Below are positions 1,030 to 40,827 of a stretch of DNA of 64,000 nucleotides, one piece after another. Source of the stretch: Elusimicrobia bacterium UBA6262. Lineage in GTDB: Bacteria > CAYTYR01 > UBA6262. The DNA is taken from NCBI GenBank assembly GCA_002441095.1, contig DJVG01000034.1, positions 61,072 through 125,071 on the forward strand. The letters are read 5' to 3'. The position numbers were made by a program, and so were the translations under genes. The notes beneath the pieces are model-generated. The model saw only the letters and a list, made by a program, of their open reading frames with translations, did no database searches and was not told the origin of the DNA. The first letter of the stretch is position 1, and each line of letters opens with the position of its first letter.

Positions 1030-1039
1030 TTTACCACCG

Positions 1040-1765: not shown

Positions 1766-2802
1766 GCTTTTGCTCCCTTTTTAAAAAGGTCGATATTTTC
1801 CTTAACCCAATTTACCAGATTAGTTATTCCTTCTTTGGGCATTACTTTCGCTTCCCATTTTAAATTTTGTTTAACCTTGGCCGTATCGCAGATAAAATAC
1901 CTGAGGTCACCGACCCGGTCAGGACAATAATTTACTGGTATTTTGCGGCCGAGGATTTCCTGCAATACCTCAATGCATTCCAGCAGGGAAATGGCGGTTT
2001 TTGTATTGCCGCCGACATTGTATATCCCCGGTTTTCTATTATTATAAAAGGCATCAAAAGCCGCGCACAGATCAGTAGCATACAGGATGTCCCTTATTTG
2101 CTTACCGGTCCCATAGATATTGATTGGCTCACCCAGTAAGGCCCGGATAGAAAAATTTGCCACCCAGCCATGGTCTTCTCCTCCTAATTGCCTGGGGCCA
2201 TACAATCCAGTCAGACGGAAACTGGCAGCCTCAATTCCATACGTGTCAATATAAGTTTGGATATACAAGTCTGCCGACCGCTTGGAAGCATGCAGCGGAG
2301 TTAATATTCCTTCGACAGTGGGGTGTTCTTCATTTATCGTCTCGGGATCCCTGGTATAGCGGGTTTTTCCCTCTTTTAAAGTCTCGTTAATTTTATTTCC
2401 GTAAACGTGAATGGTGGCGCAGGAAACCATCGGTATTTTATGCCGGCGGGCTATTTCCAGCACATTAAAGGTCCCGATGACGTTTGAAGTAAAATCGAGT
2501 TGGGGATCTTCCACGCTAATGGTGACTGCCGGCTGAGCCGCGGTATGAATGATAAAATCACAGCCTTTAGCTGCTTTTTCCAGCTGATCATAGTCCCGGA
2601 TATCCTGTTTGAGCATTTCTACGCCCATTTTTTTCAATAGTTCCCAATTATAATCCCTGGCTTTCCCCACAGCATATCCCGTGCGCATCAATTCATACTT
2701 AGTCATGTTATCATAAGCTATGACCTGGGCACCCTTCTTAATATAGTATTCACAGACATGAGAGCCAATAAATCCGCATCCTCCAGTCACTAAAACTTTC
2801 AT
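1762..2802 (-). CDS. NAD-dependent epimerase/dehydratase (extended SDR)
   Basis: VLVTGGCGFIGSH Rossmann motif and YxxxK signature; overlaps its neighbours by 4 bp and 1 bp, consistent with an operon. Confidence 0.75.
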   Translation of the reverse strand: MKVLVTGGCGFIGSHVCEYYIKKGAQVIAYDNMTKYELMRTGYAVGKARDYNWELLKKMGVEMLKQDIRDYDQLEKAAKGCDFIIHTAAQPAVTISVEDPQLDFTSNVIGTFNVLEIARRHKIPMVSCATIHVYGNKINETLKEGKTRYTRDPETINEEHPTVEGILTPLHASKRSADLYIQTYIDTYGIEAASFRLTGLYGPRQLGGEDHGWVANFSIRALLGEPINIYGTGKQIRDILYATDLCAAFDAFYNNRKPGIYNVGGNTKTAISLLECIEVLQEILGRKIPVNYCPDRVGDLRYFICDTAKVKQNLKWEAKVMPKEGITNLVNWVKENIDLFKKGAKA

Positions 2803-4016
2803 TAATTTCCCCCTTTATCGTTATTTTTCATATCATCCTGCACCCCATATTGTTTCTCCCTGCTGCTGGTATCATAGCCGCGGCAGCTCTGGCATAGATA
2901 CGGGACTGGCCCGTTTTTCTTATTAACGCTGGCGCGGGTTTTCCTATACCGCGGTTTATTCCAGATCTGCTTAAAATCCTCTTCATATAAATTACCCAAA
3001 GCATCTTCCTTCAATTTTATCCGGTTGTTGGACATGAGCAAAGCGCAGTCCAATAGGGCTGAACCATCGATCATAATGTAAGGCTGCAGCCATTTAGCGC
3101 AATAGTCAATACTGGCGCAATTATTTGAAGTATGCGACCAGATCAGGTTAATATTGTATTTTTTGGCTAACTGGTTTGATGCTTCGATGATCTCGGGCGG
3201 GATACTACTGATATTCAGGTGATCGATCTCCGGAAAACTTAATAAGCCCACCACCTGGACATCAGTAAGCTTCCCTAAATTTACGTCAAGTTCATGCACT
3301 AATTCCAGCAACCTGGGTATTTCTCCAACATTATCTTTCATAGCTATCAGCCGGAAGAAGATATAAGGGAAAGGTGTCTTTTTTTCCTGTTTGATCTTTT
3401 TTAGAGCCCTTAAATTAGTAATGACCCTGTCAAAATTTGCGCCGACTCTTATCTTCTCGTATATCGCCTTAGAGGCAGCATCTAACGAGACCTCTATCCT
3501 TTCCACATTCAGGTCGATTATTTTTTCCACAAAATCTTCCTTGAACAGGTCAAAGCTTTCCACAAACATGGTATTGACATTTTTTTTGTTCAGATAGTCC
3601 AGCATTTTGAAGAATTCCTTGTTCAAAAATCCCGTGCCCTCTCCGGTCACATTAATATACCGTAGTTTGGGGAATTGATCTATTATTTTTTTAAACTGCT
3701 CAAAAGTCATATCCTGGTGACGATATTTTTCGTCCTTCCAATAGGTGTGCTCGCACATAACGCAACGCAAGTAACATTTGGTCGTTATCTCAATTTCCAA
3801 TTCTTTAGGATACGGGGCCAAAGCCGGGAATCTTTTAAAGAGCCAGTCAAACTTACCGCCATCTATATCCCTGACCCAAAGCTGGCTCCAGACCAGGTTA
3901 TAGGCCTTTCTCCATCTTCCTTTTTTCAAAAAATACCAGACCTCATCCCAATGCTTGGTATAAAAATTACGGATTCCCTTAATTTTCCTAAACATTTTAT
4001 TGATCGGATTAGACAT
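2802..4016 (-). CDS. radical SAM domain protein
   Basis: CYLRCVMC carries the CxxxCxxC cluster motif; cysteine-rich C-terminus (CQSCRGYD). Confidence 0.65.
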   Translation of the reverse strand: MSNPINKMFRKIKGIRNFYTKHWDEVWYFLKKGRWRKAYNLVWSQLWVRDIDGGKFDWLFKRFPALAPYPKELEIEITTKCYLRCVMCEHTYWKDEKYRHQDMTFEQFKKIIDQFPKLRYINVTGEGTGFLNKEFFKMLDYLNKKNVNTMFVESFDLFKEDFVEKIIDLNVERIEVSLDAASKAIYEKIRVGANFDRVITNLRALKKIKQEKKTPFPYIFFRLIAMKDNVGEIPRLLELVHELDVNLGKLTDVQVVGLLSFPEIDHLNISSIPPEIIEASNQLAKKYNINLIWSHTSNNCASIDYCAKWLQPYIMIDGSALLDCALLMSNNRIKLKEDALGNLYEEDFKQIWNKPRYRKTRASVNKKNGPVPYLCQSCRGYDTSSREKQYGVQDDMKNNDKGGN

Positions 4017-5904
4017 TATCTACCTCAGCTATTTCGGTTATTAATATGCTTTTTGGTTTAAGCGTGAACCGCTGCAACAACTTGCCTTTATACATAACAA
4101 TTTTCTCCTCCTCTTTAGAAGCATCATTAAGCAATATTAGTTTCTCATCGACATGCATGATATATATTCCCGTTCCCGGCTCGCCATAAAGATATAGCGG
4201 AGCCCAGGGATATTGCTGGTCCTTATTACAAAGGTAAGGCCACAATGTCCGGGCAAATGCTTTAACCTTCAGATAAGGGATACTGATCCGATATCCTTCG
4301 CCATACTGTTCGTAACTTGCAGTCTCTCCGCAAGACAAATAAATTCCGCCAGATTTTACCCAATCCAGTACTAAGTCCTGGGTCAGGCTGTGGCCATAAG
4401 GATGGCTATAGCTGAATATAAACCGGTAGTCATCAAGGATATTATCCTGCACTAAGGTGTCATCGATTATATCTAAATCTATAGAGGACCGTAAATTACT
4501 GGCTAAAGCCAGATTAAGGTTCAAGGACCCCGGTTCCAGGGCTGCGGAATCAGCACTGACCAGCAAAGCGGCTTCCACTCTTCTCGAACCATTGACCAGG
4601 TAAGGGTAATTATTGGCCAGGTTCTTGGCTACCTCGCTTGGCCGCCCAAGAGGGATACAGTTATTGCTTTTCCCGGTGCAAGACACTCTTGTACCATAAT
4701 CTATCCCGAATAATGTTTTAAAATACAAACCCTCTATATCTCCGGAGGCATAATCAAAGACCCTCATAACTACTTCATCAGGCGCGGTTTCTATGGTTTC
4801 TTCAGTCTCTATCGCGGCATGATAATGTTTAGCCGCCGTTGATAACAAGCTCTTATTGGAAAAACTTTCAGCGTAATTACTGCCTAAATTTGTAATCCTC
4901 ACACCGGCATTAAGCTCTCCAGCCAGCTTGGCCTGGCCGGCGAAATCCGCTCCGGTAATCACATCCCCATATCCCCCGGTAACCAGGTAAACAGGTTTCC
5001 CCGGAAAAAATTGTTTGGTCAATATCAGCCATTTTCTGGCATATGCAGTCATAGTTTGCATATACCATCTGACAAAGGTCAGATAATGGTTGCGTCCCGA
5101 GATGTCCTTAAGATCCCTATTCAGTAGCCGGTTTTCATACCATTGCTCTAAATTCCTGGTTACCGGCTGGTCCAGGGCAAATAGCTCATGCCAAATTTTC
5201 CTGAAAACCTTATATAAAAGATCTTGGTGCAGGTTAATCTTCTTTATCGGCCAATCAATATTATCCCAAGACGCATAAGCTGTACCCCAGTCCTTATTCA
5301 AGTTATCCAATATCACATATTTCTGAGTGCAATAATTGACAAAATCCTGCCGGGCATACTGGTCATTGCACCACCACCCGCTATGTTTATGCCCCTGGCG
5401 GTTAATCCCATCTGATGAGGGATAGATGGCTTCACCCCAGACACCGCTAATCCCTATCAGCACGCTTTCTATAACTTCATTCTGGTCATACCGCTCAGCG
5501 ATCATCCTGATGAATTTTTCAATATACTCAGGTAAAAAAGGATTCCAGATGGATTGGATATCGCATTCCTGCCCATGTTCAAGGCACTTGGCAAATACTG
5601 ACTGGGAAGAATCACTGAACCATTCAGGTATTGAATAATTGGGTCCTAAAATTATAAAAGGCACCCATTTTAGTTTATGCGCAATGATTTTTTTTACCAC
5701 TTCATCGTAAGCGCTGAAATCAAGACAGCCTTTTACCGGTTCGATCATTGACCAGTAAACATACGATTGGAGTGAAGTAATGCCATATTTTTTCACTTCT
5801 TCATAAACGCTGTCCGCCAGCAGTTCCGGTTTTACCCTGCCGAACGCCTGCCATTGCTGGATGATATGGGGTTTAGCCGCTATTTTCTGAGATGGAGTTG
5901 ACAT
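4009..5904 (-). CDS. glycoside hydrolase family 42-like protein (beta-galactosidase-like TIM barrel plus trimerisation-type domain)
   Basis: 631 aa; N-terminal YVYWSMIEP...WGEAIYP TIM-barrel-like segments and a GH42M-like central region (ALLVSADSAALEP...DLDIIDD). Assigned by overall resemblance only. Confidence 0.4.
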   Translation of the reverse strand: MSTPSQKIAAKPHIIQQWQAFGRVKPELLADSVYEEVKKYGITSLQSYVYWSMIEPVKGCLDFSAYDEVVKKIIAHKLKWVPFIILGPNYSIPEWFSDSSQSVFAKCLEHGQECDIQSIWNPFLPEYIEKFIRMIAERYDQNEVIESVLIGISGVWGEAIYPSSDGINRQGHKHSGWWCNDQYARQDFVNYCTQKYVILDNLNKDWGTAYASWDNIDWPIKKINLHQDLLYKVFRKIWHELFALDQPVTRNLEQWYENRLLNRDLKDISGRNHYLTFVRWYMQTMTAYARKWLILTKQFFPGKPVYLVTGGYGDVITGADFAGQAKLAGELNAGVRITNLGSNYAESFSNKSLLSTAAKHYHAAIETEETIETAPDEVVMRVFDYASGDIEGLYFKTLFGIDYGTRVSCTGKSNNCIPLGRPSEVAKNLANNYPYLVNGSRRVEAALLVSADSAALEPGSLNLNLALASNLRSSIDLDIIDDTLVQDNILDDYRFIFSYSHPYGHSLTQDLVLDWVKSGGIYLSCGETASYEQYGEGYRISIPYLKVKAFARTLWPYLCNKDQQYPWAPLYLYGEPGTGIYIMHVDEKLILLNDASKEEEKIVMYKGKLLQRFTLKPKSILITEIAEVDNV

Positions 5905-5911
5905 AGCGCGA

Positions 5912-6661
5912 CTATTTTACAGCCTTGATAATAACTCGCCCGTGTACCGGCATATTCCTCCTGAGCAATCCTTTAGCCAGGTCTTTCCAATGTAATGGGG
6001 TTTTATGGAGGACCTCAAATCCCGTAAAGCCAACATCCCGCAGCATCGCTTTTATAGCGCTGATAGTAGGCAGGTGCCAATTAGTGGGATCCTGATTAAA
6101 AGTAGAACCTTGCACATATTCCAGCAATGGCCGGTTATTCATATTTTTCAGGTAAGCTGTTTCTATGATCAGTGTTCTTTTGCAAACCTGGGCAATTTTT
6201 TCCAAGGCCAGGACCGGATACTTCAAATGATATAAAACCCCTAGAAACAAAACCAGATCAAATTCTCCCAGCTTCTTCGGGTCAATATCATATACATCCA
6301 AGTCAACATATTTAACTTTAGACTGCAGGATCTCTTTAGCTACCTGAAATCCCTTAGTGCCCAAACTGGCATATTTTACTTCATCAGCCCTTTGCATGCG
6401 ATACAGGTTATCAATAGCCACAACTTCCCTGGCTCCTCTTTTTTCACATTCGAAGCTGTAGAAACCGTCCCAGGCGCCTATATCCAGGACTCTTTGCCCT
6501 TTTAAATCTCCGGGCAAAGCAAGCCGGTTTATAGTAATGAGATTATCCATTACTTTACCCGGCGTAATAATTCCTTCCCCTAAAGGGATAGAATGCCCCC
6601 AAAAAGGTACTTCTTTGATCTTAGCTAATATCTGTTCCTTGGACATCGTCATTCCCGGCAC
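5912..6661 (-). CDS. class I SAM-dependent methyltransferase
   Basis: VLDIGAWDGFYSF...EVVAIDN matches motif I and the post-I acidic residue. Confidence 0.7.
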   Translation of the reverse strand: MPGMTMSKEQILAKIKEVPFWGHSIPLGEGIITPGKVMDNLITINRLALPGDLKGQRVLDIGAWDGFYSFECEKRGAREVVAIDNLYRMQRADEVKYASLGTKGFQVAKEILQSKVKYVDLDVYDIDPKKLGEFDLVLFLGVLYHLKYPVLALEKIAQVCKRTLIIETAYLKNMNNRPLLEYVQGSTFNQDPTNWHLPTISAIKAMLRDVGFTGFEVLHKTPLHWKDLAKGLLRRNMPVHGRVIIKAVK

Positions 6662-6665
6662 CTCT

Positions 6666-7853
6666 CTATTGAGTTTTTATGTGCTCTAATAAATGCCGCC
6701 ATTTTCCTTTGGCCTGGTCTGCATCCAGTTCATCTTTTAGGGTATCGGCAATCCTAATTTCTTCAGGTTTTGTAACCTTCTTGATAAAACCAGTTGGTTC
6801 GGCGTCAAATAACAAAGCATCCAGATAGTCTGCGTGCCGGTGTTTTAACTGCAGCAGGGGATATAAATAATATGAGGGTATCCCGAGTGCAGCACTGCAA
6901 AAATTAGCCGAAGAAAAAAATGAAAATACCGCCTTTATTCTTCCGGCATTAAAAATGATCACTTTCTCCAGATATTCTTTTTGGTCGATCATCGTGATCC
7001 CGGCCAGAGAAACACCCTGGTAATCGTCCTGGGTGTCATGCGGATGCCATTTCATAAACAGCTGATTAGCGGGATAAGCTGCTCTTATTCTGCCTAAAAC
7101 TTCATTCATGATCGAGCTGAATCGTTCCCTTTCGGGGATATACGTCACGAGATTATGCCCTATAAACAGGATCGTATCTTCAGGCAGGGATAATACTTGC
7201 TCTTGATCACTGAATTTTATCTGGTCCAGGGTCAAAGACATTTTTTCGTATTCTGATTTATATCCTGGCGGACTGGAACGGTTAAAAAATATCTCTTTAG
7301 CAAACATAGCAGTCCCTAACAGCCTGTTGCCGATATTAACACTGCCGGGGACATATTGATACCGGAGCATCCGGCCATAGAATAGCAAAGAATAAAAGGA
7401 AAGCGCCAGGGACCGCCACAGGGATGTTTTTATATTTCCCAGGAGATTGTATTTCAACGGATTTAACTGATAAACCAGGTGATAGGATTTAATCCGGTAA
7501 TGCTTCTTTCTCAGTTCATCGATATGGCGGTAAAGATTCAGGCAAGACAATTCAGAATCATCAAAAAAGAAAAATACCGATTCTTTTGGGATCTCTATCT
7601 TCTTTATTGCCTGCTTATGCCTGATGGCCTGCTTTAATCCTTTAATTACATTCTTCTCATAATTGCAATACGGCAGATGATGCACCCGGTCAAAGTAATC
7701 GCCCAGCCTAAGCTGATCATATTTATAAAGCTGGGGATAATGGGTGATCAGCAGTTCAAACTTGATATCCTTGTCCAGTTCACGCATTAACTGCGTCAGG
7801 CCTAGCGAAATAATGATATCCACCTGCCTGATAGCGTGAAAATAAAAAATCAT
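6666..7853 (-). CDS. hypothetical protein; candidate CMP-sugar-dependent GT-B glycosyltransferase
   Basis: 395 aa with no TM. WHPHD is followed about 43 aa later by FSFFSS, which resembles the HP...SS arrangement of sialyl/Kdo-transferases. Weak inference. Confidence 0.3.
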   Translation of the reverse strand: MIFYFHAIRQVDIIISLGLTQLMRELDKDIKFELLITHYPQLYKYDQLRLGDYFDRVHHLPYCNYEKNVIKGLKQAIRHKQAIKKIEIPKESVFFFFDDSELSCLNLYRHIDELRKKHYRIKSYHLVYQLNPLKYNLLGNIKTSLWRSLALSFYSLLFYGRMLRYQYVPGSVNIGNRLLGTAMFAKEIFFNRSSPPGYKSEYEKMSLTLDQIKFSDQEQVLSLPEDTILFIGHNLVTYIPERERFSSIMNEVLGRIRAAYPANQLFMKWHPHDTQDDYQGVSLAGITMIDQKEYLEKVIIFNAGRIKAVFSFFSSANFCSAALGIPSYYLYPLLQLKHRHADYLDALLFDAEPTGFIKKVTKPEEIRIADTLKDELDADQAKGKWRHLLEHIKTQ

Positions 7854-7895
7854 TTATACCACCATCCCATAATTATAGGAACAATACTTATGAAT

Positions 7896-9365
7896 TTATT
7901 TCGCTCGAAATAAAGCACGTATATAATGCAATTCCTTTTGACTGAACGAGCGCACAGTAAAAAGAAATATTATATACGAAGTGATACCTGCCAGAATGGT
8001 CCAGAGCAGATTATGATAGTACCAGCGTACAAAATGCATTACTATTCCCATTAATATCGAAGACAATATGAATTTACTTATTTCTTTAATACCATAGGTG
8101 AACTTAAAATGGCGTTTTACCGTTGTATTAATAATGTTAAAAGATATAAAAAAACTGACAAAAGAAGTAATTGCCGCTACGAGAATGTTCTTATAAATAC
8201 TAATAAATATCAAATTCAACGCTAAACTGGTTGCCCCTGAAATTATGTTAACATAAAAGAGGATCTTGGTCCTTAATTGTACCAACAAAAGGTTAGTAAG
8301 GATCAAATTAATTCCAAAGAATAAGACTCCTAAAGCAATAAAAGGGATACACCAAAAAGCAGCTTCTGCAACCTGCCAATTAGCCAGCAACACCAGGATA
8401 TCTTTGCCGACGACTAAACTGCCGGTGATAAAAGGGATAGCTACTACTAGAAACAGTTTAATACTATAATGCAGGGTGTTCTTGACTTCATGTTCTTTTT
8501 TCTCATCATTAGCCCTGGCCAGGCTTGGCAGCAAAGACATATTCAGGGCTTTTGGTACCACGCCAATAACCCCACCGACACTATGAGCAGGACTATATAG
8601 TCCTACTGCGCTTGCTGACATTAATCCCCCGATAATATACCGGTCACTGGAATACATAATAAATTCCAAAATATATGATAATATCAGGGGTATGCCAAGC
8701 TTTATATCCTCTACTATTTGTTTCACTTTCAATACTGGGAAACTGAACCCGATCTCCCTTAATAATTTCACAGTGACATAACTGTAGGCGATAAGACTGG
8801 AATAAATCTCCGCCTGCAAGACTACATTAATATTTTTTACTTTGAAAACGAAAAACCCGATCAGCGCAAAAAGAACCAGCAATACTGAATTCACAATAGC
8901 TGAATAAATTAAAATATTGATCCTATGCGTATAACGAAAAAAATGAGCTATCTGCCCGCTCATAAATTTCATCAGGATTACCAGACATATCAAACCCATA
9001 GAAAATGTTATGTCATTATGATAAATGGTACCTTTAACAAATCCGTCTAAGCCCATTAAGAGAGCGAAAATTATCATTAGCACATATAATTGGAAAAAGA
9101 ACTGCGGATAAAATAACTTATTTTGTTCCTGAGGATCTTTTGTAGACGGCACAAATCTCTTATACTTAAATCCTACCCCCAAAGAGGATATAACACACAA
9201 GAATTCTACCCCGGTCTTTAACAGGACATACCCACCGTAAACAGTAATACCAAAGTTTTTGATCAGAACCGGCAATAAGATCAGGCCTTGCAAAGTAGAA
9301 AAAGCATACCATATTATAGTTAGTACATTATTTTTAACAAAATTTGTCTTATAATCATTGGCCAC
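7896..9365 (-). CDS. wzx: polysaccharide flippase (Wzx, MOP superfamily)
   Basis: 489 aa with about 12 predicted TM helices and a typical Wzx hydropathy pattern. Confidence 0.65.
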   Translation of the reverse strand: MANDYKTNFVKNNVLTIIWYAFSTLQGLILLPVLIKNFGITVYGGYVLLKTGVEFLCVISSLGVGFKYKRFVPSTKDPQEQNKLFYPQFFFQLYVLMIIFALLMGLDGFVKGTIYHNDITFSMGLICLVILMKFMSGQIAHFFRYTHRINILIYSAIVNSVLLVLFALIGFFVFKVKNINVVLQAEIYSSLIAYSYVTVKLLREIGFSFPVLKVKQIVEDIKLGIPLILSYILEFIMYSSDRYIIGGLMSASAVGLYSPAHSVGGVIGVVPKALNMSLLPSLARANDEKKEHEVKNTLHYSIKLFLVVAIPFITGSLVVGKDILVLLANWQVAEAAFWCIPFIALGVLFFGINLILTNLLLVQLRTKILFYVNIISGATSLALNLIFISIYKNILVAAITSFVSFFISFNIINTTVKRHFKFTYGIKEISKFILSSILMGIVMHFVRWYYHNLLWTILAGITSYIIFLFTVRSFSQKELHYIRALFRAK

Positions 9366-9392
9366 TAATATGTTCCTGATAAGTGATTTTAA

Positions 9393-10358
9393 TCATCTTA
9401 AACTGTAAATCCTGGTTTCATGATTAGACAAAGGATATGCTTCTTTCTTTACTAGCTCATAGGCACTGGAAATAGGATACTTACTCATCACTACATCGCT
9501 AGGATCTCTTTTCCCTTCCCTATTCACTAAATAAAGTTTCCTAACCTTTAATCTGTCGATTTCAGACAAATAGTATTTTAAGTTGTCCAAGGTCATATGC
9601 TGAAAACTCATAGTATTAATGAACAAGTCTACCTTTCTGCTTAATTTTGGCAGGAGCCAGGGAGCTAACAGGATAACAACTTTTTCTGTTTCAGTAATAT
9701 TTATAGAATCAAGATCCTTTTCCTTAACCGCTACTTTAACTTTCAGGCCGCTATTACTCAGATAATAATAACTCAGGGATAAATTTTCCGGCAGGTCAAT
9801 CAGTATATAAGTTTTTATGGCGAATTCCTTTGATGAAATAAGTTTCTCGCAAAGACCGCCAAATCCGCCACCGATCTCCATAATGGTTTCAATGCTGTCA
9901 GCCGAAAATTCCTGCTTTAATTTTTCATGATAATAGAACATTCTAATACAAAAATCAGTTACTTTCCTATGACCAAGCAAATAGTAACATGGATTACCAA
10001 CCAGATTATCGGTCAGTCCGTTCATTTTTATCTTACACTGTTTATTTACCCTGTACATCTGCATTAATATATCCCTGATACCCCGTACTTTTTGCCAAAA
10101 AGGTATACCTTTTGGCCAGGGCTTAAAACTCGCAATACTTTGCGGTTGTGGTAAATACCATAACGGCCGGTCCGGGAAGGAAATTGTTCCTCCGGAAAGA
10201 GCGGTTCTCCTGAAATTTATCAGATTCGATTCGTTTAAATGGGCAGGGAAATAATCAATCTTGGCATTTTCAACCGGAGAGTGTTTCCAGCCTCCATTAC
10301 TGGTAGCGCTTAAATCCCGCAGGGTCTTGAAAAGTTCTATGGTTTCTTTTTCAAACAT
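9393..10358 (-). CDS. putative sugar O-methyltransferase
   Basis: IMEIGGGFGGLCEKL SAM-binding-like motif; sits in the glycan locus. Confidence 0.5.
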   Translation of the reverse strand: MFEKETIELFKTLRDLSATSNGGWKHSPVENAKIDYFPAHLNESNLINFRRTALSGGTISFPDRPLWYLPQPQSIASFKPWPKGIPFWQKVRGIRDILMQMYRVNKQCKIKMNGLTDNLVGNPCYYLLGHRKVTDFCIRMFYYHEKLKQEFSADSIETIMEIGGGFGGLCEKLISSKEFAIKTYILIDLPENLSLSYYYLSNSGLKVKVAVKEKDLDSINITETEKVVILLAPWLLPKLSRKVDLFINTMSFQHMTLDNLKYYLSEIDRLKVRKLYLVNREGKRDPSDVVMSKYPISSAYELVKKEAYPLSNHETRIYSLR

Positions 10359-10383
10359 TTATTCCTCCTTATTTTTTATAATA

Positions 10384-11103
10384 TTATTGATTAGGCTTAA
10401 TACCATGTTCACTAATAAGTTTTTCCGACAACCATAAATCCAGCTCATCATGTATATCAATAAAAGGTAGTTCTTCGTTATTTATAACAACTTCTACGTT
10501 GTTTCCCAGCCGCCGGCCCTGTTTAATGAACTCTGACCTGGTCGCACAAGCTAATCCAGTATCTTCCCTGTATAATGGTTCTCTTTTCTGCCGGGGCCCA
10601 TACTGCAAATCTGGCGCTAAGCGGACCATTTTCCCATCAACTCGGCGCCAGTAGTTTTTGTGGGTTTTAGTCACTACGAAGACCGAATCCAAGTTTGGGT
10701 CAGAGAGGATCTTTTGCACTGTTTCCTGCAGCATATACCTGGACCGGAATATGTCGGTTAATTGCAGAAATACCACTACATCGGCCTTATACTGCTCATT
10801 TTTCTCCAGCCATTCAACGCCGTGTTTAAGCACTGCTTCCGTAGTTGTGTCATCCTGGGCCAATTCAGCCGGCCTAATAAAAGGGATCTCGGCGCCATAA
10901 TTCCTTGCAATCTGAGCTATTTCCTGGTCATCGGTTGAAACGATGACACGATCGATCAAAGCGCATTGTTTAGCAGCTTCGATAGTGTAGGCGATCAGCG
11001 GCTTGCCGGCTAACAGCTTAATATTTTTTCTGGGTAATCCTTTCGACCCGCCCCGGGCCGGGATTATAGCTACTACTTGAAGCTTATTTTTCTCATTTGT
11101 CAT
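10384..11103 (-). CDS. CMP-sugar (acylneuraminate/Kdo-type) cytidylyltransferase
   Basis: VAIIPARGGSKGLPRKNIKLLAGKPLI is the canonical NeuA/PseF/KdsB-family P-loop. Confidence 0.8.
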   Translation of the reverse strand: MTNEKNKLQVVAIIPARGGSKGLPRKNIKLLAGKPLIAYTIEAAKQCALIDRVIVSTDDQEIAQIARNYGAEIPFIRPAELAQDDTTTEAVLKHGVEWLEKNEQYKADVVVFLQLTDIFRSRYMLQETVQKILSDPNLDSVFVVTKTHKNYWRRVDGKMVRLAPDLQYGPRQKREPLYREDTGLACATRSEFIKQGRRLGNNVEVVINNEELPFIDIHDELDLWLSEKLISEHGIKPNQ

Positions 11104-12448
11104 TGTTTTTCCACCAGTCAGAGATCAATTGTTCAGCTACCTGGAAATCGTTTGCTTTACTGACATTAAGCATATGGATCAGCCCTTCGATCTCCAGCAT
11201 TCCTACTTTGGGCCCTAATCTTTCACCTCTGCGGATAAATTCGCTGTAGGTAGCCGTGCACAAGCCCGAAATCCCGATATGCAAAGGGTTTTTGTATTTA
11301 CTCGGGACAAAACCTTCATCCAGCCGTACCAGCTTGCCTTCTTCTTCGCGCCAGCAGGATTTATATTCCGGAATAGCCGGTAAAACACTGTCAAAGCCTT
11401 CTTCTACCAGCATCCTGATGGTTTGATCGATGATATTTTTTGGCCGGAAAGGATAGGTACTGCTTAAGTATACGACCACATCAGGGATGATCGCCTGCTG
11501 CTCTAAAACCTCCACCGTATATTTCAGTATTTCCTCTATTTCAATATAATCCTGTGAAAATTCCGGCGGCCTTTTCAGGCAGATTATTTTCTTATGTTTC
11601 TTGGCCAGATTGATATATTCATCATTATCGCAGGTTAAAACTATCTGCTTTATATAACGGGAAGCCAAAGCCCGTTCAATGGTATAATCCAATAGCGGCC
11701 GTCCGCCTAAACTAGCGATCTCCCCTTTCAACGGGATAACTGCCACACAATTTAGCTTCTCCGGATCAAGATTTTTATTTAGATGTCCATTTTCAAAAGT
11801 TTCCAGTATCCCCACTATTTTGCGGCATCTTTCCTCATCGGAGCTTTGATGTATCCCATGATAGTGGTAGACACTGGCTTCGGGTTCATAGATTATTTTA
11901 TAACCCTGGGTTAAGACCTGCTTCCCCCAAACCCGGTCTTCAATATTTGTAACTTGCTCATCAAACGGTATTTTTTCCCATACTGACCGCTTGATCAAAC
12001 TATTGGCATTATGAAAAAACGGATCCTTGATCTGCACCTTGCGGTCAAGTCCAAAAGTAATAAGCAGGTCCCGTTTATCAAAATCACTGCTATATGATAA
12101 GGGTTCTTGCCGGCCATATACCCCGGCAACATCAGGAGGAATAATACTATTAACAAGGTTAGATAACCATTTGTTATTAGTAGGAATGCAATGCCCGGAA
12201 AGACAGCAAATATATTCCCCTTTTGACTGCTTAATACCGTAATTGATAGCTTTACCTGGCTTAAAATCGTTTAGCGAAACAATATTTACATTATACAGTT
12301 TAGCCTTATCAATAGTCTTATCTGTGCTCTGATTATCAACCAGGATCACTTCGAAATCCTGGAAATCCTGCTTAAAAACAGCTGCCAGGCAGGAAGAGAT
12401 CCATCTTTCTTCATTTTTGGTCCTGATAATAATAGAAACTTTTGGCAT
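11093..12448 (-). CDS. fusion protein: N-terminal GT2 glycosyltransferase plus C-terminal cytidylyltransferase-like domain with a degenerate P-loop
   Basis: N-terminus VSIIIRTKNEER...FEVILVDNQSTD (GT2). The C-terminal half (VAVIPLKGEIASLGGRPLLDYTIERA...) is paralogous to the downstream cytidylyltransferase but lacks RGGSKG..KN. Confidence 0.7.
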   Translation of the reverse strand: MPKVSIIIRTKNEERWISSCLAAVFKQDFQDFEVILVDNQSTDKTIDKAKLYNVNIVSLNDFKPGKAINYGIKQSKGEYICCLSGHCIPTNNKWLSNLVNSIIPPDVAGVYGRQEPLSYSSDFDKRDLLITFGLDRKVQIKDPFFHNANSLIKRSVWEKIPFDEQVTNIEDRVWGKQVLTQGYKIIYEPEASVYHYHGIHQSSDEERCRKIVGILETFENGHLNKNLDPEKLNCVAVIPLKGEIASLGGRPLLDYTIERALASRYIKQIVLTCDNDEYINLAKKHKKIICLKRPPEFSQDYIEIEEILKYTVEVLEQQAIIPDVVVYLSSTYPFRPKNIIDQTIRMLVEEGFDSVLPAIPEYKSCWREEEGKLVRLDEGFVPSKYKNPLHIGISGLCTATYSEFIRRGERLGPKVGMLEIEGLIHMLNVSKANDFQVAEQLISDWWKNNDK

Positions 12449-12464
12449 AACCTACCTCTATTGG

Positions 12465-13388
12465 CTAACGGTTAGATATGATTTTCGATATTGCTTCCAA
12501 CTGTTTAGCTAGTATGGCAAAATCCTTAAAATTAAGCGCCTGTAAAGGGTCAACCCAGGCTTTTTCAGGGTTCGGGTGAACCTCGATCAATAATCCATTG
12601 GCCCCAGCGGCAATAGCCGCCCGGGAAATAGCCGCGACATAGGCCCGTTTGAAGGTGGCGTGACTGGGATCCACAAAGACTGGGACCGAAGGTGCATATT
12701 CCTTGAGCGCGGGAATCGCCTGGATATCGATAATGGCCCTGGATTCAACATTATGGGTATGAGGCGCCACTATTCCCCGTTCACAAAAGACGAAATTATG
12801 CTTTCCCCTGGCTTCAAAATGTTCCCCTACCCCCAGCAGGGAGCGCAGGCTTTCTCCATAGTGACGCTTGATCATCACTGGCTTATCTGTAGTACACAAA
12901 GCCTCGATCAGGTCCATATTAAACATATGCCGGTACCCGATCTGGAACATATCAACATATTTGGACATTATGGGCAATGAGTCAGCATAGACGATCTCTG
13001 AAATGATTGGTAACCCGTATTTTTCCCCGGCTTCTTTGAAATAGGCAAAACGTTTCTCCGCCCTTTGGAACAGTTCATTCTTGGGCATTATTTCCTTGCG
13101 TTCCTTGCTTTTTTCATTAGTATCCGAGTCAGCCACGCCAATAGGATCGCCATAAGGGAAAGTCAGCGGCTTAAAAATACCGCCGCGCAGCATGGTAGCC
13201 CCGGCCTCTTTTACCGCCTTAGCCACCTCGAATATTTGCGTCTTGCTTTCTACCGTGCAGGGGCCGGCCATCAGGACGATCTTATCTCCGCCCAGGTCAA
13301 TATCCTTAACTTTAATTTCCCGCCGGTAGTCTTTTCTGCTTACCAACGGGATATTATTCTGTAAATCATTTTGTGAAATATCTTTCAT
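12465..13388 (-). CDS. DAHP synthase / Kdo8P synthase family (type I-beta) PEP-aldolase, DAHPS-like
   Basis: [16 protein letters not shown] and EVHPNPEKA motifs of the I-beta family. The loop reads KPLTFPY rather than the DAHPS KPRTSPY. Confidence 0.7.
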
Positions 13389-13397
13389 CTCTGCTCC

Positions 13398-14186
13398 TTA
13401 TGGTTTTTTTATCCAATTATGCTGCGGATCTTCGGCCCCGACCAGTTTTTTACCCTCTCCCGAAAGGAAAAAAAGATAATGCAGGTTATATCCCGGCCCG
13501 GCGGCGATCTGGTGATAACCCCAAGGCATAAAAGTGATTGAATTCTGCTCCAGGAATATCAATTCATTAATACCTCTTTCCGGTGAATAAAAACGTTCCA
13601 AACCCCAGCCCTGCGGCTTATCAGTACTAAAATAATATAATTCCTCGTGTAAGGATTCCTGCGGCAAGTTACTAACCTCATGCCTGTGAGGCGGAGTCCC
13701 GGACCAGTTCCCGGGAAAATTAATGGTCTCACCCACTAACATATTGACTGCCGGCGATTCAGGACCGATGATCATTCTCACTTCGCGCGACCAGTTATCC
13801 TTGCCCACGATAATCGGTTTTATTTTATCCGGGGTAAAGATGGCAGTTTCAGTCTGGACTTGGCAGTGTGACCGGCAAACCGCGACTAAAGCCTGTTTTC
13901 CCTTCAATATGAATGCAGTTTGCGCAGGGATGTATATCCCGGTCGGCAACCCGCTGAACACATCCTTACGCTGGCCAAGATCCGCATATTCCTTGCCCTT
14001 TATGCTTAGGGAACATGATCCTGCCAGGACCACCAGCCCGGTCTCAGCATCTTCCTCCTTAAACTCCAGTTCTTGCGCAGTAGTTATGTTAACTATTGCG
14101 AATCCTTTGATATATTTAAATAGCCCCCCCGGATCAACCTCATTAAGGCCCGGTTTTAGGGTCAACCGCTGATCAAATTTTCCCAT
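13398..14186 (-). CDS. IolB/KduI-family cupin ketol-isomerase
   Basis: 262 aa; NWSGTPPHRHE...ESLHEELYYF resembles 5-deoxy-glucuronate isomerase (IolB). Confidence 0.55.
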   Translation of the reverse strand: MGKFDQRLTLKPGLNEVDPGGLFKYIKGFAIVNITTAQELEFKEEDAETGLVVLAGSCSLSIKGKEYADLGQRKDVFSGLPTGIYIPAQTAFILKGKQALVAVCRSHCQVQTETAIFTPDKIKPIIVGKDNWSREVRMIIGPESPAVNMLVGETINFPGNWSGTPPHRHEVSNLPQESLHEELYYFSTDKPQGWGLERFYSPERGINELIFLEQNSITFMPWGYHQIAAGPGYNLHYLFFLSGEGKKLVGAEDPQHNWIKKP

Positions 14187-14187
14187 A

Positions 14188-16977
<2,790 letters not shown>

Positions 16978-17083
16978 AAATTACTCCTGGAGAAAAAATG
17001 CATATTTTTTATTTTCTCATAATACTTATTAGAAGTCAATATAATATCAATGTACACCCAAGGTGCTTCCAAGTAAACAGCTA

Positions 17084-18010
17084 TTAATGTTTCGTAAACC
17101 ATTGAATGGTTTTCTTTAAACCTTCCTTTACCGGGACTTGAGGCTCCCACTGCAATAATTTTTTAGCCAGGGCAATATCCGGCTGACGGACCTTGGGATC
17201 ATCCACCGGCAGGTCTTTGAAGACGATCTGGCTTTTGGTTTTGGTCATTTTCTTGATGATCCTGGCAAATTCCAGCACTGTCATCTCTTCCTGGTTGCCG
17301 ATATTGATCGGCTCATGGGTATTACTGAGTACTAACCGGTATATTCCCTCTGCCAGGTCGCTGACATAGCAGAAACTGCGGGTCTGCGAGCCGTCCCCGA
17401 ACACGGTTAAAGGTTCACCTTTTAACGCCTGGTCAATAAAACTCGGCACTACCCGGCCGTCATTTTTGCGCATGCGCGGGCCGAAAGTATTGAATATCCG
17501 CACTATTTTCACATCTACCCCGTGGAACCGATGATACGCCATGGTCAGAGCTTCAGCAAAACGCTTGGCTTCATCATATACACCGCGCGGGCCGATAGGA
17601 TTGACATTCCCCCAGTAGGTCTCTTTCTGCGGATGCACCAGCGGGTCACCGTATACCTCCGAGGTTGAAGCCAGCAGGAAGATGGCTTTCTTTTCTTTTG
17701 CCAGGCCCAGGGCTTTATGCGTGCCTAATGATCCGACTTTCAGGGTTTGTATGGGAAAATTCAGATAATCTATGGGACTGGCCGGCGAAGCAAAATGGAG
17801 TATGGCATCCAGCTTACCCGGCACAAATATGAATTCAGTCACATCATGATGGATGAACCGGAATTTCTTGTTCCCGATCAAATGGGCGATATTTTCCATA
17901 TTGCCGGTGAGCAGATTATCCATGGCGATAACAGTATGTCCTTTTTTAACGAATAGATCGCACAAATGAGAGCCCAGGAAACCCGCTCCGCCAGTGATCA
18001 AAACTTTCAT
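17084..18010 (-). CDS. uxs: UDP-glucuronate decarboxylase (UDP-xylose synthase)
   Basis: Near-collinear with UXS1: [24 protein letters not shown]...[10 protein letters not shown]. Confidence 0.85.
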
Positions 18011-18030
18011 CCCGTCAGACCTCCTCTTAT

Positions 18031-19323
18031 TTATTTTCGGCCGATACTTTTGTATATAAAACCATGCTTTTTCATTTTAGCCGGATCATAGATATTGCGG
18101 CCATCAACGATAGCCGGAGTTTTCAACAGTTTTTTGATCCGGCCGAGATCCAGTTCTTTAAATTCATTCCAATCAGTAATTATTACCAGCAGGTCACTGC
18201 CTCTGGCTACTTCATAAGCATTCCGGCCATATTTTACTCCGGTCAGGATCTTCCGGGCTTTGGCCATAGCGATAGGATCGTAAGCCTTGATCTTAGCTCC
18301 CTCAGACTGCAGCGATTTAATAATATCAATAGCCGGGGCAAAACGCAGGTCATCGGTTTCCGGCTTAAAAGCCAGGCCCAGGATACCGATAGTCTTGTTT
18401 TTTAACACCCACAGCGACTCTTCAATTTTTTGCAGTAAAAGCTTTTTTTGCTGTTCGTTTATCTTCTGTACGGCTTTTAATAATTCAAAATCATAGCCGC
18501 TTTTTTTAGCAATATAAATAAAGGCCGCCAGGTCCTTGGGAAAACATGAACCACCAAAGCCAACCCCGGCATTCAAGAATTCTCGGCCGATCCTTTTGTC
18601 ATAACCCATGCCTTCCGCCACTTTTTCTACATCCGCTCCCACCCGGTCACAGATATTGGCGACCGCATTAGCAAAGGATATTTTCGTAGCCAAGAAAGAA
18701 TTGGAAGCATGCTTGATTATCTCTGAGCTTTTAATATCCGTGACAATGACCGGCGCTTTCAGCGGACGATAAAGCTCCCGCATGATCTTTTCCGCCCTCT
18801 TACTCGATACGCCCAGCACTATCCGGTCAGGATGCATGGTATCTTTGATGGCCGATCCCTCTCTCAGGAATTCCGGGTTGGATACCACATCAAAATCAGT
18901 TTTATGGGTATTATATAATTTAATGGTTTGCATTATTCTTTCGCCGGTTTCCACGGGTACGGTACTTTTTTCCACGATAATTTTATATTCCCGCATATGC
19001 ACGGCAATTTCTGCCGTCACTGTTTCCACAAAAGACAGGTCAGCTTCGCCATCCTGTTTAGGGGGAGTGTTGACTGAAATAAATATGATCTGGCTCTGTT
19101 CCACGCCTTCCTTGATCTTAGTTGTAAATTTAAGCCTTTTCTCTCTTGTATTTTTAACCACCAGCTCAGCCAGGCCTGGCTCATAGATAGGCATTTTGCC
19201 CCTCTTAAGCATGTTGATCTTTTCCTGGTTGTTATCAACACAGATCACCTGATTGCCCAGATCCGCCAGGCAGGTCCCGGTGACCAATCCTACATAACCT
19301 GTGCCGATTACGCAAATCCTCAT
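18031..19323 (-). CDS. ugd: UDP-glucose 6-dehydrogenase
   Basis: [16 protein letters not shown]...GGSCFPKD catalytic Cys motif. Confidence 0.9.
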
Positions 19324-19361
19324 GTTTGCTCCTTTAATTTAATAAGCTATCCTGCCGCTGC

Positions 19362-20135
19362 CTATTTCCATACCTTCCAGGGAGCCTGGCCCGACTGCCA
19401 GAGCTGTTCCAGTTCATTTTTATCCCTGAGGGTATCAGTAGGACGCCAGAATCCATTATGCCGGTATGCTGCTAACTGTCCTTCTTGAGCGAGCTTGGCC
19501 ATTGGTTCTTTCTCCCAGGCTGTGCCATCACCTTCAATATATTTGAATACTTCCGGCTGCAGGACAAAGTATCCGGCAGTGATCCAGGCATTATCGCCTT
19601 TGGGTTTTTCCAGGAAGGAAGCTACCTTATCCTCTCCTCCTATATCCATAGTGCCAAACCGTCCCAGAGGCTGTACTGCGGTCACTGTAGCCAGTGTTTT
19701 ATGCTCCTGGTGAAATTTTACCAGCGCCGCAATATCGATATTGCCTATCCCATTGCCATAGGACATCATGAACGGGTTATTGCCGATATATTTCTCTATC
19801 TTTTTCAAGCGCCCGCCAGTCATAGTTTCCGGACCGGTATCCACCATGGTTACCTTCCAAGGCTCAGAAGCGCCGGTATGAATGCTCATGCTGTTCTTGG
19901 CCAGGTCAAAGGTGACATCGCTCAGGTGCAAGAAATAATGGGAAAAAAATTCCTTTACCGCATAGCCATGATTTCCCAGGCAGATCACAAACTCATTGAA
20001 TCCAAAATGGGAATATGTTTTCATGATGTGCCATAATACCGGCTTGCCGTCGATCTCGATCATCGGTTTAGGTATGGTTTGTGTTTCCTCGCTTATCCTG
20101 ATTCCTTGGCCGCCTGCTAAAATCACTACTTTCAT
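19362..20135 (-). CDS. rfbF: glucose-1-phosphate cytidylyltransferase
   Basis: MKVVILAGGQGIRISEET..IPKPMIEI and a C-terminal WKVW typical of RfbF/DdhA. Confidence 0.85.
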   Translation of the reverse strand: MKVVILAGGQGIRISEETQTIPKPMIEIDGKPVLWHIMKTYSHFGFNEFVICLGNHGYAVKEFFSHYFLHLSDVTFDLAKNSMSIHTGASEPWKVTMVDTGPETMTGGRLKKIEKYIGNNPFMMSYGNGIGNIDIAALVKFHQEHKTLATVTAVQPLGRFGTMDIGGEDKVASFLEKPKGDNAWITAGYFVLQPEVFKYIEGDGTAWEKEPMAKLAQEGQLAAYRHNGFWRPTDTLRDKNELEQLWQSGQAPWKVWK

Positions 20136-20149
20136 CCTGCTCCGCCTCC

Positions 20150-21115
20150 TTAAAGCTCTTTATCCAATATCGCTTTGAAATTCCTGGCTGTAAAATCAAG
20201 GATGACTTTGTTACCCTGTACCGATACAGTATGGTTATAAACCAGTTGGGAATAAGCATACTTTCGCTTGATCACTTCACCCAGGAACTGGGCATCATTC
20301 TGCATTAACTTTACCTTTGCCGGATCACTGCATTTAAAGAAGAGCTTCCCCTTGACCTCATCATCAGTCACCAGGCTGAAGGTCAGTAATAATGATTCCA
20401 GCCACTGGCCAGACAGCAGTACTACCATCTTATTATCAGTTTCCCATTTTTTCAATTCTTGCGAAAACCGGCGGCTCTGGTTGTTTATAAATATATAACC
20501 TTCATAGCCTTTGGGTATCGCGCTTGACAACTCTTTAAAAGCCGCCGTCTGTACAACATTGCTGCCGGTTCGTGCTGCTGCCAGGCAGGTGGAAACAAGT
20601 CCGCTATTACTGGCGAGTATGACCCGCCCTTCCTGTACAGAAAAAGCCGTCAGGCGGTCATTGCGCTCAGCTTCGCTGTCAAAATATATCTCCTGCTGGT
20701 TGCTTTCCTTCTTGCTCCAGCCAGGATTAATACTGACGAAATTCCCTAAATTATCGATCAGGAACTTATTAAATCTTTCCTTTTCCCCTTCCAGGTCAGG
20801 GAACACCACTAATATATTTTTCCAGCCTGCCTCAGCCGGGAAGCTCCCTCCGGCAACCTGTTTAAAAGTGAATTGCTTGAACAAGTATGACAGCAGCAGG
20901 TAATTTGGGTCATCCTGATGCTGCGCTATTTTCCCCTGGTAAGTCTTGATCAGTGAGCGCCAGGCGCTGCTGGTGTTCAGGTTCTTTAAGCTGAACACTA
21001 CTTCCGCATTCTTGGGCAAATAATTGACCAGCTCCGCGGCCAGTCCGGCAGCAGCGCTAAATAAGCAATATAAAACTAATAACCAGACGCTCTTTTTCAT
21101 TGTATTTGCCGCCAT
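20150..21115 (-). CDS. hypothetical secreted protein
   Basis: Signal peptide MKKSVWLLVLYCLFSAAAGLAAE; no recognisable domain. Confidence 0.45.
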   Translation of the reverse strand: MAANTMKKSVWLLVLYCLFSAAAGLAAELVNYLPKNAEVVFSLKNLNTSSAWRSLIKTYQGKIAQHQDDPNYLLLSYLFKQFTFKQVAGGSFPAEAGWKNILVVFPDLEGEKERFNKFLIDNLGNFVSINPGWSKKESNQQEIYFDSEAERNDRLTAFSVQEGRVILASNSGLVSTCLAAARTGSNVVQTAAFKELSSAIPKGYEGYIFINNQSRRFSQELKKWETDNKMVVLLSGQWLESLLLTFSLVTDDEVKGKLFFKCSDPAKVKLMQNDAQFLGEVIKRKYAYSQLVYNHTVSVQGNKVILDFTARNFKAILDKEL

Positions 21116-34530: not shown

Positions 34531-34630
34531 ATTTAACCCTAGCTCTTAAGCTGTAGAAGTACAACAAGAAGTTCAGCAAGCTGTACAGCTGTAGAGAAGC
34601 AAACTTCTTTACAGCTTTATAGCTCTACAC
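34531..34630. repeat. family-C palindromic element (GCTGTAGAAG / CTTCTTTACAGC)
   Basis: aagctgtagaagt...agctgtacagctgtagagaag...cttctttacagct; a second copy lies at 45957-46065. Confidence 0.65.
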
Positions 34631-35815: not shown

Positions 35816-35921
35816 CTAAACCTCAAAAGAAGTTGCGAGTTTCCAGTTTCAAGTTGCGAGTTTTGGATAAATGCTTTTTAAATAATAAACCTTAACTCGC
35901 AAACTCGTAATCCGCAACCTG
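35816..35921. repeat. family-A palindromic element
   Basis: agttgcgagtttccagtttcaagttgcgagtttt...ccttaactcgcaaactcgtaatccgcaacctgtcaact. Confidence 0.75.
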
Positions 35922-36602: not shown

Positions 36603-36625
36603 CGCATTAGTGGCGGGTAATCGTT

Positions 36626-37999: not shown

Positions 38000-38011
38000 A
38001 AAATAGTTTTT

Positions 38012-38800: not shown

Positions 38801-38911
38801 AAGTTAAACCTAATCTCCAAATCTAAATAACAAAATCCAAATAAAGTCCAAAATCCCAATCTTAAATATTTTTTAATGATTATTGGGTTTTTATTTGTCA
38901 TTTGACATTTG

Positions 38912-39991: not shown

Positions 39992-40037
39992 CTTTGATTT
40001 TAACTGCTATCCGCCGACTGCGAACTGCCAACGGCCC

Positions 40038-40193: not shown

Positions 40194-40202
40194 GATTCCC
40201 CC

Positions 40203-40766: not shown

Positions 40767-40827
40767 TTTACACCTCTACACCTTTACACCTGACATTCAG
40801 CTTTCAGCATTTAGCATTCAGCTGTTC

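Follow-up and report, generated by a model that had tools for sequence, protein, structure and literature searches.

A minus-strand gene in a 64,000-nucleotide stretch of contig DJVG01000034.1 from Elusimicrobia bacterium UBA6262 (assembly GCA_002441095.1), the whole stretch being called the window below, encodes a protein with the fold of a type I-beta 3-deoxy-7-phosphoheptulonate synthase (DAHP synthase, DAHPS), in which the acceptor-binding loop reads KPLTFPY. With a probability that we put at about 0.6, sequence and gene context taken together predict it to be a metal- and phosphoenolpyruvate (PEP)-dependent synthase that would use a non-phosphorylated aldose as acceptor and release a free 3-deoxy-2-ulosonic acid, to be activated with CMP and attached to a glycan or to flagellin. 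The protein is assigned to the functional class of the alpha-carboxyketose synthases: its PEP and metal sites are intact, and its gene is linked to those of a predicted CMP-ulosonic-acid synthetase and of glycosyltransferases.

The KPLTFPY loop and the active site

A first-pass annotation of the window, made from the letters alone, had placed the gene product in the I-beta DAHPS family, and this assignment holds. Pfam DAHP_synth_1 was assigned with E=2.5e-45, the motif EVHPNPEKA is present, and the best Foldseek matches of the AlphaFold2 (AF2) model (pLDDT 88.3, pTM 0.89) were the I-beta DAHPS structures 1zco and 1vs1, with target-normalised TM scores of 0.88-0.89 and 35-37% identity. The scores against the NCBIfam models of DAHPS were below the cut-offs (NF006421, 265.7 vs 335 bits; TIGR01361, 234.1 vs 267.75; NF009239, 193.5 vs 279), as were those against the models of 3-deoxy-D-manno-octulosonate 8-phosphate (KDO8P) synthase (NF003543, 93.9 vs 242 bits; TIGR01362, 88.1 vs 314). 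The match to Pfam NeuB was sub-threshold (16.8 vs 22.1 bits), and a SAF domain is absent.

The same annotation had read the loop as a variant of KPRTSPY with Leu in place of Arg and Phe in place of Ser. This was confirmed by a phmmer alignment, in which the loop stretch lies opposite GGAFKPRTSPYS of the Pyrococcus furiosus DAHPS (1zco/4c1k) with no gaps: Leu75 stands at the position of the Arg and Phe77 at that of the Ser in GGAFKPRTSPY, and Thr76 is kept. Because the alignment to KPRTSPY is ungapped, the motif register assumed earlier is right, and Leu occupies the position of the Arg that binds erythrose 4-phosphate (E4P). The loop had also been described as a contact for the substrate phosphate or PEP, which agrees with the literature: PEP is bound by the first Arg and by the Lys of the I-beta motif VLRGGAFKPRT, whereas E4P, in the Thermotoga maritima complex, is held by the KPRT residues Arg and Thr (PMC6362186). 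The altered acceptor specificity suggested on this basis is supported as a prediction by the loss of the Arg position, the distinct clade and the distinct gene neighbourhood.

The loop change is a character of a clade, not a one-off mutation. A word-indexed search returned at least 120 clusters of closest homologues, 69-100% identical to the window protein and about 308 residues long; KPLTFPY was read in 111 of 120 and KPMTFPY in one, the other eight not being read by the motif pattern. A sister clade, also of at least 120 clusters, comprises proteins of 286-297 residues and has KPLTFPY in 117 of 120. In an exhaustive search of 50%-identity representatives, where the clade of the window protein is reduced to a single representative, KPR[TS][ST] was found in 110 of the next 149 representatives, and more distant lineages with KPLTF, KPLTW, KPCTF and KPATF surfaced, the sister clade being one of them. 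In a neighbour-joining tree the non-Arg, KPLTF-type lineages fall outside the cluster containing every ordinary KPRTS enzyme. This separate branch, together with the cytidylyltransferase genes described below, answers the concern that KPLT might be common among housekeeping DAHPS.

Among species-representative genomes, a group of 20 loci at 60-95% identity is followed by a gap down to 39% or less, where the ordinary DAHPS begin. These loci belong to Omnitrophota, Desulfobacterales, Dehalococcoidaceae, Myxococcia, Sulfurovum, Victivallales, Planctomycetales and the candidate phyla radiation (CPR), the CPR carriers being Saccharibacteria and Staskawiczbacteria. All carriers but one are metagenome-assembled genomes (MAGs), and the nearest is the unclassified MAG STB_115 (95% identity, syntenic). 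Since the patterns of the genome scan were specific to the window protein, this taxonomic spread is a lower bound. A phage origin was considered, but no relative was found when IMG/VR viral contigs were scanned with clade-specific patterns. Public annotations call members of the clade 3-deoxy-7-phosphoheptulonate synthase, NeuB-family protein or hypothetical protein, and full-text literature searches returned no publication on the clade or on a DAHPS-like enzyme in a CMP-sugar pathway.

Residue conservation was derived from an alignment of 35 clade members. The catalytic core, that is the metal and PEP sites, is intact and strictly conserved: the metal ligands C44, H243, E269 and D280 and the PEP residues R68, K73, R153, K174 and R204 are all invariant and correspond to those listed for I-beta DAHPS, where the metal site consists of four residues, Cys, His, Glu and Asp (PMC6362186). 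A pseudogene or an inactive enzyme is ruled out by these invariant catalytic residues and by identities of at least 69% across phyla. Another set of residues is invariant in the clade and lacking in ordinary enzymes (Y152, H176, E179, R182, H210, T211, H212 and N213, and further T245, F246, R248 and W278). Several segments close to the active site differ along with the loop. The segment QIGYRHMFN differs from that of ordinary I-beta enzymes; KRH stands where these have KRG (KRGxxxTIxE); and DPSHxTF, found in all KPLTF lineages, replaces the ordinary DPSHxxG(xR). An N-terminal segment, M1-K2-D3-S5-D8-N12-L15 (MKDIS..D..N..L), is also invariant. The sister clade shares KRH, the PHTH loop (Table 1), DPSH[AS]TF[KR]R and an N-terminal MKD[IV][ST]; confidence of the AF2 model is low at residues 210-214, in the region of the PHTH loop.

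The 29-residue insertion (Table 1), which is absent from the sister clade, accounts for the splitting of the phmmer alignment with PDB sequences into two blocks, covering residues 19-80 and 110-300 of the query. Within it D87 is invariant and R97 almost so. In the AF2 model a helical turn at residues 82-84 is the sole assigned structure up to residue 102, and a helix at 103-124 follows.

Gene neighbourhoods of the KPLTF synthases

The neighbourhood of the clade points to a CMP-sugar pathway. By a tblastn census of the fetched flanks, 24 of the 26 loci of the clade and four of five distant KPLTF loci have a homologue of CTP_transf_3 cytidylyltransferases, as compared with 0 of 60 for ordinary DAHPS; an aro context was found at none of the 26. 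Neighbouring genes were clustered over 23 clade loci, the window included. Downstream of the synthase lies the cytidylyltransferase and, usually, also a protein in which a family 2 glycosyltransferase (GT2) is joined to a CTP_transf_3 (CTP3) domain. This fusion occurs in 15 of the 23 loci, and the sister clade has separate GT2 and CTP3 genes. Homologues of the NanM-like O-methyltransferase of the window (Table 1; cluster C8) were found in six clade loci, and flippases and Wzy are also encoded near the synthases.

Upstream of the synthase two types of module were distinguished. Type A, in 11 of the 23 loci, consists of an IolO-like and an IolB-like enzyme; the KduI/IolB homologue (cluster C3) lies upstream in 11 loci, among them the window, and mostly directly. 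Type B, in another 11, consists of a GFO/IDH/MocA dehydrogenase (GFO) and a shikimate-dehydrogenase-like (SDH-like) protein of about 347 residues, and GFO-like and SDH-like genes are present too in locus L016, which was unclassified in the clustering. The residues for substrate binding and catalysis in shikimate dehydrogenases (SxS, K, N, D, Y and Q) are retained in the SDH-like protein, whose third-best solved relative is a 5-ketofructose reductase, a keto-sugar reductase of the SDH family. The module types are mixed in the synthase tree and none of the alignment columns discriminates them; on these grounds a division of the clade into two substrate specificities by module type was rejected.

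No KdsC-type phosphatase of the haloacid dehalogenase (HAD) superfamily was conserved in about 30 loci examined, and no kinase was conserved in the loci examined. A tblastn search with the KdsC-type HAD domain gave as its sole match a HAD domain that forms part of a cytidylyltransferase in L082/L083, where the latter belongs to a separate NeuB cluster.

In the sister clade the genes of GFO, synthase and SDH-like protein form a trio, contiguous in that order in four loci and rearranged in L094; in all loci but L094 the genes of GT2, CTP3 and CTP3 come next. One of these loci, L091 (Nitrospira sp. Kam-Ns4a, OZ224218.1, 2117374-2138240; genes 775-20382), lies in a flagellar region, in the order FlgK, a 586-residue flagellin, CsrA, FliW, several others, GFO, synthase, SDH-like protein, NeuB with SAF domain, GT2, CTP3, CTP3, a methyltransferase and a 1174-residue Maf/MptE-like protein. 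This layout suggests glycosylation of flagellin with the sugar made by the synthase. In a Margulisiibacteriota locus Maf genes are found on both sides of the cassette.

A homologue of GT30, the N-terminal domain of Kdo transferases (PF04413), occurs in L093 (11857-13245), L009 (9715-10968) and L020 (1245-1802), where it adjoins or separates the cytidylyltransferase genes of the cassette, being embedded in it in L093. These neighbours fit a Kdo-like CMP-sugar donor. Several clade loci carry in addition a protein of the dihydrodipicolinate synthase (DHDPS) family, weakly similar to KdgD and NanA, and a protein of the enolase superfamily (MR/MLE) resembling acid-sugar dehydratases (L006 11665-12627, L018 1505-2686, L011, L012, L004, L014 and L017). 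Both are typical of acid-sugar metabolism and could help in identifying the acceptor. L087/L088 (2984-10175) encode a short and divergent KPLTF homologue of 268 residues (P0131), accompanied by genes for a KduI-like protein, a CTP3-GT2 fusion, CTP3 and methyltransferases. These contigs are rich in small open reading frames (ORFs) without a Pfam match and contain a KilA-N gene; they may belong to a phage, or to a CPR or other unusual genome.

In the window, the synthase gene is part of an operon that reads, in the direction of decreasing coordinates, UDP-glucose dehydrogenase, an epimerase/dehydratase of the short-chain dehydrogenase/reductase (SDR) type, an unknown gene, a GDP-fucose-synthase-like SDR, the IolO-like and IolB-like enzymes, the synthase, the GT2-CTP_transf_3 fusion, CTP_transf_3, the NanM-like protein and the flippase (Table 1). 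The partner enzymes resemble known families without reaching their cut-offs: the IolO-like protein scored 296.9 bits against NF041099, 5-keto-L-gluconate epimerase (cut-off 300), the cupin 191.8 bits against TIGR04378, IolB (cut-off 205), and the cytidylyltransferase 151.5 bits against PseF, its best NCBIfam match (cut-off 205.7). IolO converts 5-keto-L-gluconate into D-tagaturonate (PMC12632266). At its C-terminal end the GT2 fusion carries a domain paralogous to the cytidylyltransferase encoded next to it (34% identity), in which an eight-residue deletion has removed the nucleotide-binding loop RGGSKGLPRKN (IPARGGSKGLPRKNIKLL becoming IPLKG--------EIASL). Judged from this deletion, the domain probably has no cytidylyltransferase activity, and it may serve the GT2 as a CMP-sugar-binding module.

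Table 1. Coordinates of the synthase gene, of its distinctive segments and of the neighbouring operon genes in the window
Feature	Position	Strand	Evidence
Predicted ulosonic-acid synthase, DAHPS-I-beta fold, KPLTF type	12465..13388	minus	ATG start, 307 residues
K73-P-L75-T-F77-P-Y79 loop (residues 73-79)	13152..13172	minus	codons read directly
29-residue insertion specific to the clade (residues 81-109), linking the beta2 loop to the lengthened helix alpha2	13062..13148	minus	split PDB alignment, multiple alignment
I206-VAPHTHN213 loop, three-residue insertion, invariant H210-T-H212-N in place of ordinary RTFE	12750..12773	minus	alignment; also in sister clade
Xylose-isomerase-like TIM barrel, IolO-like keto-acid-sugar epimerase (module type A)	14188..15000	minus	Pfam AP_endonuc_2, E=4.9e-41
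KduI/IolB-family cupin, IolB-like aldose-ketose isomerase of acid sugars (module type A)	13398..14186	minus	Pfam KduI, E=5e-61
GT2 glycosyltransferase fused to a CTP_transf_3-like domain	11093..12448	minus	Pfam
CTP_transf_3 cytidylyltransferase (PseF/KdsB/NeuA family), predicted CMP-ulosonic-acid synthetase	10384..11103	minus	Pfam, E=1.6e-27
NanM-like putative sugar O-methyltransferase	9393..10358	minus	TIGR04371, 118 bits (cut-off 44)
Wzx/MATE-type polysaccharide flippase, end of the sugar-specific block	7896..9365	minus	Pfam MatE, Polysacc_synt

The glycan context noted in the first-pass annotation is confirmed by this arrangement: there is no aro context at the gene, and the trp operon (33739-42318) forms a separate block about 20 kb away. 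The trp operon contains a TrpB-like gene of the TrpB2 type (36626-37999, minus strand; NF009057, 747 bits) between trpC and trpF, additional to the canonical trpB (34631-35815). Nearly all long ORFs of the 64 kb are on the minus strand and make one co-directional block of glycan, trp and his genes; the GC skew is negative in each 2-kb bin up to about 62 kb of the window. The polysaccharide locus also encodes a radical-SAM/SPASM protein (2802-4016, minus strand) and a 631-residue GH42/GH14-like protein (4009-5904, minus strand). A radical-SAM/SPASM gene is also found near the cassette in L093, and B12-radical-SAM genes in L019, L006 and L017.

Predicted pathway and alternative explanations

The ancestor of the KPLTF enzymes would have been a type I-beta DAHPS that lost recognition of E4P, the acceptor-phosphate site on the beta2-alpha2 loop having become hydrophobic through Leu75 and Phe77, along with which Phe246 varies, with remodelling of the nearby loops. 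The two upstream enzymes would supply or adjust the acceptor sugar. In the type A route this may be achieved by an acid-sugar aldose-ketose isomerase and an epimerase inverting the carbon beside the keto group, and in the type B route by oxidation of a hydroxyl by GFO and reduction of the ketone from the other face by the SDH-like protein. Since the modules are intermixed in the phylogeny and no column distinguishes them, both should yield the same compound, and they may represent two redox-neutral routes to the same free-sugar epimer. The synthase would then direct an aldol-type attack of PEP on the aldehyde of a non-phosphate acceptor to give a free 3-deoxy-2-ulosonic acid, an outcome similar to that of NeuB; a non-phosphorylated acceptor is inferred because the phosphate-binding Arg is lost and no phosphatase is conserved in the loci. 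The PseF-like cytidylyltransferase would convert the ulosonic acid into a CMP-sugar, and the GT2 fusion, replaced elsewhere by a GT30 Kdo-transferase-like or Maf protein, would transfer the sugar to a surface polysaccharide or to flagellin.

As for the nature of the acceptor, the working hypothesis, which is the weakest part of the reasoning and is itself rather doubtful, is a uronate-type sugar giving a dicarboxylic 'ulosaric' acid. The ground for it is the similarity of three of the four partners (IolO-like, IolB-like and SDH-like) to enzymes that act on carboxylated or keto sugars. Almost as good a fit is a neutral sugar, for example allose, to which both routes could lead. With Leu in place of Arg, binding of a uronate would need other basic residues, for which R182, R248, H176, H210 and H212 are candidates.

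Several points weigh against the proposed pathway or its uronate part. The replacement of Arg by Leu is unexpected if the distal group of the acceptor is a carboxylate, UDP-glucose dehydrogenase is encoded near the cassette in a minority of loci only, and no enzyme releasing a free uronate was identified in the loci. In three of the five sister-clade loci (L086, L091 and L092) a NeuB+SAF gene is part of the same operon, which the proposed pathway does not account for. Besides, phosphate could be bound by the new basic residues, with a phosphatase encoded elsewhere, and the target of the upstream enzymes might be the product of the synthase instead of its substrate.

The last two objections can be developed into explanations of their own. 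An enzyme that is still a sugar-phosphate synthase, of the KDO8P or Kdn-9-P type, would have relocated its phosphate site to the new His and Arg residues and the 29-residue insertion, and a remote phosphatase would act before CMP activation. The loss of the Arg is indeed accompanied by new invariant basic or polar residues (H154, H176, R182, H210, H212 and R248, with R97 in the insertion), HAD-type genes are found at the edges of a few loci (L084, L092), and to our knowledge all characterised DAHP_synth_1 members use a phosphorylated aldose. Nevertheless, this is unlikely, given that neither a phosphatase nor a kinase is conserved in the approximately 30 loci, the only tblastn match being that in L082/L083, and that the IolO-like and IolB-like partners look like enzymes whose acid-sugar substrates carry no phosphate. 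A quite improbable alternative is that the ulosonic acid is made from a common free aldose and that the neighbouring enzymes act afterwards, for instance by epimerising a ring hydroxyl, or that it is an intermediate of a longer pathway that includes NeuB. It differs from the preferred explanation only in the order of steps. The SDH-like partner retains all residues that bind shikimate or quinate, and a 2-ulosonic acid in its pyranose form would resemble quinate. Enzymes of the KduI family act on 3-deoxy-2-ulosonic acids, and the sister-clade order of GFO, synthase, SDH-like protein and then NeuB is also compatible with late action. However, the type A enzymes have no obvious reaction on a 3-deoxy-2-ulosonic acid lacking a distal carbonyl, and the apparent equivalence of modules A and B is easier to explain before the condensation.

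An ordinary housekeeping DAHPS with a tolerated loop variation has been largely refuted and is most improbable. Such an enzyme would account for the fold, the metal site and the PEP site, which are as in I-beta DAHPS, and for the database annotation of the clade as 3-deoxy-7-phosphoheptulonate synthase; moreover, the organism of the window has a trp operon and hence needs chorismate. However, the E4P-binding Arg is absent throughout the clade, all DAHPS equivalog cut-offs were missed, and the counts for aro context and cytidylyltransferase genes are those of a different neighbourhood. The gene is also found in flagellin-glycosylation islands and in CPR genomes, and the Saccharibacteria and Staskawiczbacteria lineages are usually without aromatic amino-acid synthesis. 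The aminoshikimate (Rif-type) pathway, which also combines a DAHPS with SDH-like and GFO-type enzymes, was rejected, as dehydroquinate synthase and dehydratase, 3-amino-5-hydroxybenzoate (AHBA) synthase, the kinase and the aminotransferase are not conserved in the loci, and cytidylyltransferases and glycosyltransferases are conserved instead. Classical myo-inositol catabolism (IolE/IolB/IolG) was rejected as well: IolD, IolC and IolJ are absent, and the epimerase scored 296.9 bits as IolO against 52.8 bits as IolE.

If the predicted pathway with a non-phosphorylated acceptor is true, it would extend the known repertoire of PEP-dependent sugar-acid synthesis. DAHPS, KDO8P synthase and NeuB are named as the principal enzymes that form alpha-keto sugar acids with PEP (PMC12531865), and to these three types a DAHPS-derived enzyme acting on a different acceptor, for glycan synthesis, would be added. 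An undescribed sugar acid would then be expected in Omnitrophota, Desulfobacterota, Dehalococcoidia, Margulisiibacteriota, Nitrospirota and CPR, and the label '3-deoxy-7-phosphoheptulonate synthase' would wrongly credit genomes, reduced CPR genomes included, with the entry step of the shikimate pathway. In its most far-reaching and distinctly speculative form, the proposal is that the KPLTF enzymes of the insertion clade and its sister clade are a fourth branch of PEP-aldose condensing enzymes, which would use an aldehydo-acid as acceptor to make a dicarboxylic 3-deoxy-2-ulosaric product, either an undescribed nine-carbon sugar or, by a bacterial route, a heptulosaric acid of the type of 3-deoxy-D-lyxo-2-heptulosarate (Dha), which would be CMP-activated and placed on surface glycans or flagella of many uncultivated phyla, including CPR. 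With no more than two tailoring genes beside those of the synthase and the cytidylyltransferase, the cassette is small enough for a direct test in vitro.

Comparison with known systems

The closest characterised relatives are the unregulated I-beta DAHPS of P. furiosus (1ZCO/4C1K) and Aeropyrum pernix (1VS1), together with that of T. maritima (1RZM), with which the protein shares the (beta/alpha)8 fold and the metal and PEP sites; attack of PEP C3 on an aldehyde is presumably the common chemistry. The window protein differs from them in the Leu/Phe loop, the 29-residue insertion, PHTH for RTFE, KRH for KRG and DPSHxTF for DPSHxxG, as well as in its conserved N-terminal MKDIS helix, its scores below the family cut-offs and its glycan rather than shikimate context.

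The KdsA/KdsC/KdsB pathway offers a parallel at the level of the whole route, for KdsA belongs to the same Pfam family and a 3-deoxy-2-ulosonic acid is made from PEP and an aldose, after which a CTP_transf_3 enzyme activates it and it is added to a glycan. Three of the related loci contain a GT30 Kdo-transferase-like gene. The synthase itself, however, is phylogenetically nearer to I-beta DAHPS than to KdsA, with which it shares about 20-22% identity and whose NCBIfam models gave 60-94 bits against cut-offs of 242-457. Its loop is KPLTF and it has no KANRS motif, KANRS being the consensus of the KdsA acceptor loop. No KdsC-type phosphatase is conserved in its loci, though one may be encoded elsewhere in the genome, and its cytidylyltransferase is PseF-like.

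A speculative link leads to Dha. An aldehydo-acid as acceptor would give a 3-deoxy-2-ulosaric acid, which is the chemical class of Dha, and the family would then be a lead for ulosaric acids such as this one. Both the biosynthetic enzymes of Dha and its nucleotide form were recorded as unknown in 2012, and again in 2025 (PMC12168206). An enzyme derived from DAHPS would naturally take a four-carbon acceptor. On the other hand, no evidence ties these bacteria to Dha, and acid sugars with six carbons suit the IolO-like, IolB-like and SDH-like partners better than those with four.

The predicted reaction itself is analogous to that of NeuB, PseI and LegI, which act with NeuA or PseF and join PEP to an aldose that bears no phosphate, so that the ulosonic acid is released in free form. 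Synthases of both kinds adjoin a PseF-like cytidylyltransferase, and in some genomes both lie in flagellin-glycosylation islands with Maf genes. The window protein belongs to a different family from NeuB and has no SAF domain; and because true NeuB+SAF genes coexist with the sister-clade synthase in the same operons, the two enzymes are not redundant.

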